467 nt of DNA from Escherichia coli (lineage in GTDB: Bacteria; Pseudomonadota; Gammaproteobacteria; Enterobacterales; Enterobacteriaceae). Shown one piece after another: positions 1 to 467 of this stretch (positions within the stretch are counted from its first letter, which is position 1; each line of letters starts with the position of its first letter). The stretch lies in assembly GCF_003334255.1 (NCBI RefSeq), contig NZ_QOWU01000234.1; one strand, given 5' to 3'. A model generated the notes under the pieces. That model saw only the letters and a list, made by a program, of their open reading frames with translations, ran no database searches and was not told where the DNA came from. Position numbers and translations under genes: made by a program.

Positions 1-467
1 AGCGCACTGACCAGCGTATCCAGTTCCCAGCCGGTGCGGGCCGATACGGCCACAACCGGATGTACGGGCCGGAACAGACGGAATACCGCCTCCGTTTTTT
101 CGCGAATATTCTGTGCCTGTGCAGGAGAAGGCTGAATACCGGCCATATCCCATTCATGGCAGGGCTCCGTTTTGTCGGCCTGCGTCACCACAAACAGTAC
201 CCGCTGATGTCCCCGGTGCAGGATGTGTTGCCAGAAATACTCATCCACAGACAGGGCACGGTCATCGGCTTTAATCAGCCACAGTACCAGGTCCAGTTCA
301 GGCAGAATGTCACGGTACAGGGCCTCATACTCTGCATCCCTGTCCCGGCTCTCGCCCACCCCGGGCAGGTCAGTGATAACCATGCTGTGACCGTGGCCAC
401 TCAGACGGAAGCGCCGTACTTCCCGGGTGCCGGCGTGAACATCACTGACCGGGGTGACCTCCCCCTG
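1..467 (-). CDS. Internal fragment (both ends outside the window) of a small GTP-binding protein with a Ras-like/TRAFAC G domain (MMR_HSR1, '50S ribosome-binding GTPase'-like); resembles the YfjP/YkfA/YeeP family of cryptic-prophage/genomic-island GTPases
   Basis: Seen in sequence: the minus-strand frame whose first codon is the complement of 467..465 is open for all 155 codons. Codon choice is enterobacterial-like (frequent CTG Leu, G/C-rich third positions). G-domain motifs occur in the expected order and spacing: G2 'GTRE' (420-431), G3 'VITDLPGVGE' with DxxG at 360-371, G4 'LFVVTQADK' (171-185), G5 'VVAVSAR' with SAR at 36-44. G3 to G4 is about 60 residues and G4 to G5 about 44, typical of a G domain. 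The P-loop (G1) should lie about 20-40 nt beyond position 467. Family assignment is from recalled similarity to E. coli CP4-prophage GTPases, not from a search, so no gene symbol is given. Confidence 0.85.

Follow-up and report, generated by a model that had tools for sequence, protein, structure and literature searches.

GC content and genomic context of a yeeP-type GTPase gene in an Escherichia coli island

Does a GC-rich stretch of E. coli DNA reveal, by its base composition, that it was acquired horizontally? The window considered here, the whole 467-nt stretch that was analysed, contains 152 C, 128 G, 96 A and 91 T residues; this exact recount (280 of 467, 59.96%) reproduces the figure of about 60% GC in the original prediction, which took it as consistent with horizontal acquisition if the host was E. 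coli and as unremarkable if the host was a higher-GC enterobacterium. The GC fraction in 100-nt sliding windows ranges from 0.55 to 0.65 and peaks at both ends. Taken together, the evidence below makes it highly probable that the window is a piece of an intact yeeP-type GTPase gene, part of a horizontally acquired backbone module with a long-lived composition of its own. Its horizontal origin is supported by genomic context and dinucleotide signature more than by GC content, so the conclusion originally drawn was right, although the 60% GC is not what shows it.

A fragment of a GTPase gene and its composition

Two reading frames are free of stop codons throughout the window, minus-strand frame 0 and plus-strand frame 2. 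The minus-strand frame (GC1, GC2 and GC3 of 0.73, 0.42 and 0.65) is the coding one, because its translation is a P-loop GTPase fragment and it coincides with an annotated coding sequence: the window corresponds to nt 172–638 of an 873-nt ‘GTPase family protein’ gene (WP_001069673.1), or residues 58–212 of 290. The representative host, E. coli RM10466 (NZ_CP028381.1), belongs to the set of at least 16 genomes that match at 100% identity; there, the annotated gene occupies the minus strand of locus L001 (19766–20638). The plus-strand frame (window positions 3–467; L001 19727–20485) extends to 253 codons in context and is most likely no gene but a shadow cast by the GC-rich sense frame.

All matches at 100% identity are E. 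coli chromosomes, at least 16 of them, mainly from LEE-negative STEC (for example, O113:H21, O22:H8 and O43). At 90% identity or more, the window is present in 4,484 of 5,426 complete E. coli genomes (around 83%), with a median of 2 gene copies per genome (range 0–7), nearly all of them chromosomal. Copies with 93–100% identity also occur on 1.2–7 kb contigs of metagenome-assembled genomes labelled ‘Lachnospiraceae bacterium’ and ‘Collinsella sp.’ (L011, L036, L039, L040 and L041); these are almost certainly mis-binned E. coli DNA.

Table 1. Features located within the 467-nt window
Feature	Position	Strand	Remarks
Internal fragment of yeeP-type GTPase gene	1..467	-	Codons read from base 467 down; bases 1–2 are a partial codon
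Thr71 codon, candidate invariant switch-I (G2) threonine	426..428	-	Invariant T70 in alignment A1 numbering
G3 / Walker B DLPG, residues 90–93	360..371	-	Motif scan; reverse complement gacctgcccggg
G4 TQAD, residues 152–155	174..185	-	NKxD variant; reverse complement acgcaggccgac
G5-like SAR, residues 199–201	36..44	-	Motif scan; S198 invariant (A1 numbering)
100% identity to first 191 nt of K-12 yeeP (b1999, CP4-44)	1..191	-	blastn against L042 6787–7212

Pfam searches with the window translation return MMR_HSR1 and Dynamin_N, both weak, and it also matches the G domains of Der, Era and MnmE. The full protein carries, besides the threonine and the DLPG, TQAD and SAR motifs listed in Table 1, the P-loop GKSGAGKS at residues 43–50, which falls just beyond the window. 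In an alignment of 23 family members (A1; mean column identity 66%), the G1 motif GKxGxGKSS, the switch-I threonine, the G3 motif DxPGVGE, the Q, D and K of the G4 motif xQxDK and the G5 serine are all invariant. Column numbers of A1 equal protein numbers minus 1, as its first row lacks M1; in this numbering, DLPG sits within an invariant D-x-P-G-V-G-E (D89, P91, G92, V93, G94 and E95), and the G4 motif has the family consensus [NTS]QxDK, with Q152, D154 and K155 invariant. A confident AlphaFold2 model (pLDDT 85, pTM 0.86) comprises two N-terminal helices, followed by the G domain and a long C-terminal helical hairpin.

We compared the window and the gene with a host background of seven 50-kb stretches spaced round the RM10466 chromosome (350 kb, a 7% sample of one strain), which has a GC content of 51.0% (51.3% after masking of the two Stx prophages); gene-level comparisons used 199 core ORF proxies rather than annotated coding sequences. 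Among 467-bp windows of this sample (mean GC 0.5105, s.d. 0.051, left-skewed, 99th percentile 0.602), the window has a z score of +1.74 and is equalled or exceeded by 1.3% of host windows. The expectation that the window would be atypical in an E. coli host is thus borne out, as a high and not an extreme value, and because around 1 in 75 ordinary E. coli windows reaches 60% GC, GC content alone is weak evidence. The whole gene, with a GC fraction of 0.586 (z = +1.5), falls in the top 2.5% of the 199 host ORFs.

The excess is unevenly distributed over codon positions. In the gene, GC1 (0.686) is in the top 1.5% of host ORFs, GC2 (0.445) in the top 15% and GC3 (0.628, z = +0.8) in the top 19%; in the window read in frame, GC1 (0.729) exceeds that of all 199 ORFs and GC3 (0.652) is in the top 7%. 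In absolute terms, third positions do have a high G/C content, as originally noted, but first positions are richer still and the GC3 is ordinary for E. coli. The GC content of the window is a real, modest outlier, and GC3 is not its main source. When the protein is back-translated with host codon frequencies, the predicted GC content is 55.9%. Of the 6.4-point excess over the mean gene, amino-acid composition thus accounts for +3.5 points and synonymous codon choice for +2.8; R, V, H, D and E are plentiful in the protein, and K, N, I, Y and G are scarce. Each component is unexceptional for the gene (tails of 12% and 11%, respectively); within the window, the synonymous component is +3.7 points (tail 3.5%).

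Codon usage gives a similarly mixed picture. The gene has a codon adaptation index of 0.345 (reference set: tuf, rplKAJL and rpoBC), at the 52nd percentile of a host distribution with a mean of 0.369, and its Karlin codon bias relative to the host average is 0.429 against 0.326 ± 0.069 in length-matched ORFs, a borderline value in the top 7%. At the level of single codons, CGG (27.6 versus 5.4 per 1,000 in the host) and CCC (20.7 versus 5.9 per 1,000) are strongly over-used. Of the three measures proposed for setting the gene against its host, GC content stands out (top 1.3%), but GC3 (top 7–19%) and codon adaptation (host median) do not, and codon usage indistinguishable from that of core genes, named in advance as grounds for rejecting a foreign origin, is closely approached.

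An island bounded by tRNA-Phe and an integrase

In RM10466 the gene lies within an island of around 88.5 kb with a GC content of 48.4%, compared with 51.0% in the host sample. At one border, tRNA-Phe (pheV, 3417862–3417937 in NZ_CP028381.1) is followed by a tyrosine recombinase gene (3418135–3419400). At the other, on the yghD side, a short-word blastn search located a perfect direct repeat of 17 bp from the 3′ end of pheV (TTCGATTCCGAGTCCGG, L001 8193–8209) between a DUF4942 gene and yghD. The last 23 nt of pheV, allowing up to 3 mismatches, have no match in L001, in agreement with the ‘imperfect 23-bp DR1’ of PMC5539235. The position of the gene inside an island with these tRNA-Phe and integrase borders indicates that it was horizontally acquired.

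The GTPase gene is the first of a co-oriented block that continues with the IS102/IsrC small RNA, agn43, a YeeR-like gene, IrmA, DUF905, DUF932, an antirestriction protein, YeeS (RadC-like), YeeT, CbeA/CbtA, DUF957 and DUF4942, and that ends at yghD and the gsp genes. In the opposite direction from the GTPase gene lie ShlB with a two-partner secretion hemagglutinin, an Ail/Lom protein, IS scars and a large autotransporter, and beyond the latter a btuB copy, iha, an ato operon and the integrase gene adjoining pheV. The order and orientation of the module are kept in E. coli, in CP4-6 and CP4-57 of K-12, and in most of 23 loci in other genera.

Several features of this neighbourhood deserve mention in their own right. 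The Rfam model IS102, which corresponds to IsrC, matches full length at L001 19459–19662 on the minus strand (253 bits against a gathering threshold of 46), 104 nt downstream of the GTPase stop codon and upstream of agn43; in K-12, isrC likewise lies between yeeP and flu. Upstream of the GTPase start codon is a 1.2-kb AT-rich stretch without an annotated gene (L001 20639–21868), in which the GC fraction of a 467-bp window drops to 0.37 (at L001 21001), sharply below that of the approximately 58.5% GC gene; this stretch is a plausible, putative promoter or H-NS-bound region. The complete atoSCDAEB operon (L008 14737–21987; record 3423915–3431165), an unusual cargo for a pathogenicity island, sits between the integrase-proximal genes and IS66 remnants. 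The btuB gene with its cobalamin riboswitch, which adjoins iha (L006 6759–8867), is presumably either a second copy or a piece of the chromosome that the island captured. Outside the island, the adjacent chromosomal type II secretion genes (gspD-M/yghD, L001 1–8039) have GC contents of 52–59% (56.5% overall), well above the host mean, so at this locus the island is not alone in having GC contents in the high 50s.

The dinucleotide signature of the module is clearly foreign and far more decisive than its GC content. The Karlin δ* of the 12.3-kb module (L001 8320–20638) is 120, compared with 37.6 ± 18.8 for host windows of the same size, none of which (0 of 33; highest value 101) reaches it. For the GTPase gene alone, δ* is 157 against 83 ± 29 (top 2.9%), and for the whole island it is 88, compared with 13–30 for the 50-kb host loci and 46–56 for the Stx prophages. 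High GC content, by contrast, marks the conserved backbone module only and not the island, which lies below the host. With GC3 and codon adaptation ordinary and the island deviating in the opposite direction (48% GC), GC content alone would have done badly at detecting the island here. The lesson is methodological: foreign origin is deduced from the tRNA gene, integrase and repeat around the gene and from the dinucleotide signature, whereas 60% GC is an event expected around once in 75 windows.

Related elements in K-12 are called cryptic prophages, and we considered whether that label applies to the gene. Searches of 50,697 phage records returned 3 weak matches (22–29% identity), PHROG matches are weak and of unknown function, and no capsid, tail or terminase gene is annotated in the 88-kb island; the near-absence of the gene from phage records leaves the label unsupported for it.

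Sources of the high GC content

A scan of one genome per bacterial species, with a reach down to around 42% identity, returned 31 loci and 25 usable homologs. Homologs occur in more than 15 genera of Enterobacterales; the usable ones come, among others, from E. albertii, Salmonella diarizonae, Citrobacter, Hafnia, Photorhabdus, Yersinia, Serratia, Enterobacter, Edaphovirga, Lelliottia, Cedecea, Pectobacterium, Xenorhabdus and Huaxiibacter. The 25 homologs have GC contents of 47–58% (mean 53.2%), and their 10-kb flanks, which across species are mostly island DNA and not host core, average 47.1%. In 24 of the 25 loci, the gene has a higher GC content than its flanks. Compared with flanking coding ORFs alone, it lies above their mean in 19 of 20 loci and within their top quartile in 12; the ORFs directly downstream, which belong to the module, are also GC-richer than those upstream in the majority of these 20 loci. 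Gene GC content is weakly correlated with flank GC content (r = 0.28) and GC1, which ranges from 0.57 to 0.68 in the family, is not (r = −0.08). No other part of the sampled family has a GC content as high as that of the Escherichia yeeP clade (58.4–58.6%). The nearest homologs of this clade outside Escherichia are 59–65% identical at the protein level, with GC contents of 51–56% and AT-richer surroundings.

Plasmids also carry homologs: identity is around 51% for those of large enterobacterial plasmids, 43% for those of 5.9-kb E. coli plasmids and 40% for one on a plasmid of Burkholderia, a high-GC proteobacterium. A Klebsiella pneumoniae record (PLSDB H25) holds a 95%-identical copy. Among the PLSDB records H21–H23, H25 and H45, several are 1.0–4.9 Mb long and look like chromosomes filed as plasmids, or like misassemblies of chromosome size. 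Decay of the GTPase gene has occurred repeatedly: the Citrobacter koseri copy (L033 10001–10875) has 4 in-frame stops and a match in Citrobacter sp. NCU1 has 7, and yeeP of K-12 is a 5′-truncated remnant. Most other family copies are intact, with the invariant motifs.

These observations favour a reading in which the yeeP-type GTPase gene is the first gene of a conserved backbone module in tRNA-integrating islands of Enterobacterales; the K-12 elements CP4-44, CP4-57 and CP4-6 (‘cryptic prophages’) are of this kind. The 59–60% GC content has two roughly equal sources, the composition of the protein (GC1 of 0.69–0.73) and a preference for G/C-rich synonyms among codons, notably CGG and CCC, which E. 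coli seldom uses. On this reading, the composition belongs to the mobile module and not to the host, travels with the module and remains above its surroundings in hosts of widely differing GC content. High GC is then the mark of a long-lived mobile-element backbone and not of recent import from a 60% GC genome.

The most serious competitor holds that the GC excess says nothing about origin, because the amino-acid composition of a G domain forces a high GC1. We regard this as possible but doubtful as a full account. GC1 is indeed the most deviant codon position (0.686–0.729, above 98.5–100% of host ORFs), host codon usage applied to the amino-acid sequence accounts for around 55% of the excess, and GC1 varies within the family without regard to the flanks. 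The synonymous part of the excess is also positive, however, in the gene as in the window, and paralogs with the same fold and motifs span 47–58% GC, which means that the protein does not force 60%. Together with the dinucleotide signature of the whole module, an outlier, the CGG and CCC bias argues that protein composition is not the whole story.

As to why the module retains its composition, we can only infer a reason. A candidate that we rate as unlikely is that the elevation of the backbone, 5–10 GC points over the rest of the island in more than 15 genera and also above hosts with AT-rich genomes (Photorhabdus, for instance), reflects selection, for example for escape from H-NS-type silencing. 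Maintenance genes (the GTPase, antirestriction and toxin–antitoxin genes) would then be active as soon as the element enters any host, and the AT-rich cargo would remain silent. If true, the 60% GC of the window would be an adaptive trait of the mobile-element backbone.

Recent import from a donor of around 58–60% GC, such as a Klebsiella- or Serratia-like genome, with a composition not yet ameliorated, is improbable. It would fit the rank of the window among host windows (top 1.3%), the over-use of CGG and CCC, the foreign dinucleotide signature and the 95%-identical copy in the K. pneumoniae record. Yet the Escherichia clade has the highest GC content in the sampled family, and the nearest homologs outside the genus are divergent, less GC-rich and set in AT-richer surroundings. 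Genes of enterobacterial genomes with 58–60% GC would be expected to have a GC3 of 0.75–0.85, and the GC3 of this gene is just 0.63. Its presence in 83% of complete E. coli genomes, in copies that are 95–100% identical, points instead to long residence. Among the species-representative genomes, no donor of around 60% GC was found at the homolog threshold of around 42% identity; with the nearest relatives outside Escherichia just 59–65% identical, no high-GC donor is identifiable, and any high-GC reservoir would lie among more distant relatives.

That the gene is native to E. coli and simply occupies the upper tail of the normal GC distribution is very improbable: 1.3% of ordinary host windows are as GC-rich, and GC3 and codon adaptation are ordinary, but the gene lies in an island bounded by a tRNA gene, an integrase gene and a direct repeat, its copy number is patchy (0–7 per genome), the same syntenic module recurs in distant genera and its δ* is an outlier. 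Finally, the suggestion that the host is a higher-GC enterobacterium in which 60% GC would be unremarkable has next to no chance of being correct, since, despite homologs on plasmids and chromosomes of Klebsiella, Enterobacter and Citrobacter, the 100% matches among the sequences available are exclusively to E. coli chromosomes, the sampled host has 51.0% GC and the best species representatives outside Escherichia are at most 65% identical in protein sequence.

Comparison with known GTPases and islands

With the module reading favoured, the gene and its surroundings can be set beside systems already described. The yeeP/CP4-44-type gene and its module, module IV of the LAA island and the IsrC–Ag43 locus are already known, and their foreign origin is accepted.

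At the protein level, the YeeP-type protein has the G-domain fold and motifs common to the TRAFAC GTPases Era, Der (EngA), MnmE and FeoB-N (E values of 1e-8 to 1e-15), but it is without their KH, second-G, MnmE N-terminal and membrane domains and has its own helical N- and C-terminal extensions instead. Foldseek searches of the PDB returned Era and the FeoB G domain as top matches, as well as Toc34, GIMAP7 and Irgb6, with similarity confined to the G domain; as such matches are generic to G domains, the fold assigns no function. NCBIfam equivalog models score far below their cut-offs (Era, 51.8 versus 237 bits; MnmE, 55 versus 380; Der, 47 versus 306.7), with the G domain alone aligning, so the protein is not a member of the Era, Der or MnmE families. 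Anti-phage defence GTPases were considered as well (PADLOC models of LeoA/LeoBC, SspF and PifA). None gave a full-length match; the best, LeoBC (E = 1.8e-8), aligns residues 11–127 of the protein with positions 53–163 of a 601-position model, and because this similarity is weak and limited to the P-loop region, the gene is not classed as defence. Given its TRAFAC-class G domain, helical extensions and intact G1–G5 motifs, the protein is presumably a nucleotide-dependent switch that serves the mobile element. A literature search found no functional study of YeeP, YfjP or YkfA; the YeeP family, a conserved group of GTPases, is present in around 83% of complete E. coli genomes, often in multiple copies.

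[quoted passage not shown] 2017, PMC5539235). Its reference sequence is AFDQ01000026 (385,984–472,336), and it consists of four modules whose marker genes are hes; iha and lesP; a pagC-like gene and tpsA/B; and agn43. Module IV, which carries agn43, is 21 kb long, has 51.7% GC and is described as ‘widely distributed in E. coli’ (PMC5539235). The RM10466 island and LAA share the insertion between yqgA/pheV and yghD, a size of around 86–88 kb, a GC content of 48% against 51%, IS66 and IS3 scars, a cargo of iha, a two-partner secretion hemagglutinin, a pagC-like Ail/Lom gene and agn43, and LEE-negative STEC hosts; the RM10466 island is around 2 kb longer than the LAA of the reference strain B2F1. 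Judged by borders, size, GC content and annotated genes, the island matches the LAA pathogenicity island, and the module that holds the gene matches its module IV. A 741-nt ‘outer membrane protein’ gene near the integrase is a candidate hes. RM10466 also carries two Stx2 prophages, annotated as Stx2a and Stx2c (L004 29173–30413 and L005 15126–16366), consistent with the published association of LAA with Stx2. The word ‘GTPase’ does not occur in the main text of PMC5539235.

In K-12, the closest relative is yeeP itself (b1999) in CP4-44, a 426-bp 5′-truncated pseudogene (L042 6787–7212) with 60.1% GC, whereas the gene described here is intact (873 nt, 290 amino acids) and belongs to a far larger island, inserted at pheV and not at the CP4-44 site. 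The two have a common set of neighbours: yeeP, isrC, flu/agn43, yeeR, yeeS, yeeT, cbeA, cbtA and yeeW. The K-12 modules of CP4-44 and CP4-6 have GC contents of 54.8% and 55.2%, respectively. Two further K-12 ‘putative GTP-binding proteins’, YfjP of CP4-57, which we take to be the CDD ‘YfjP’ Era-like subfamily, and YkfA of CP4-6, are around 50% identical to the protein over 287–290 amino acids (E of around 1e-98). Both have the same invariant G motifs, and each is encoded by the first gene upstream of DUF932, antirestriction, RadC-like and CbtA-like toxin–antitoxin genes. They nevertheless form a separate subclade of lower GC content, with genes of 54.1% and 56.8%, respectively, compared with 58.6% for the gene in the pheV island.
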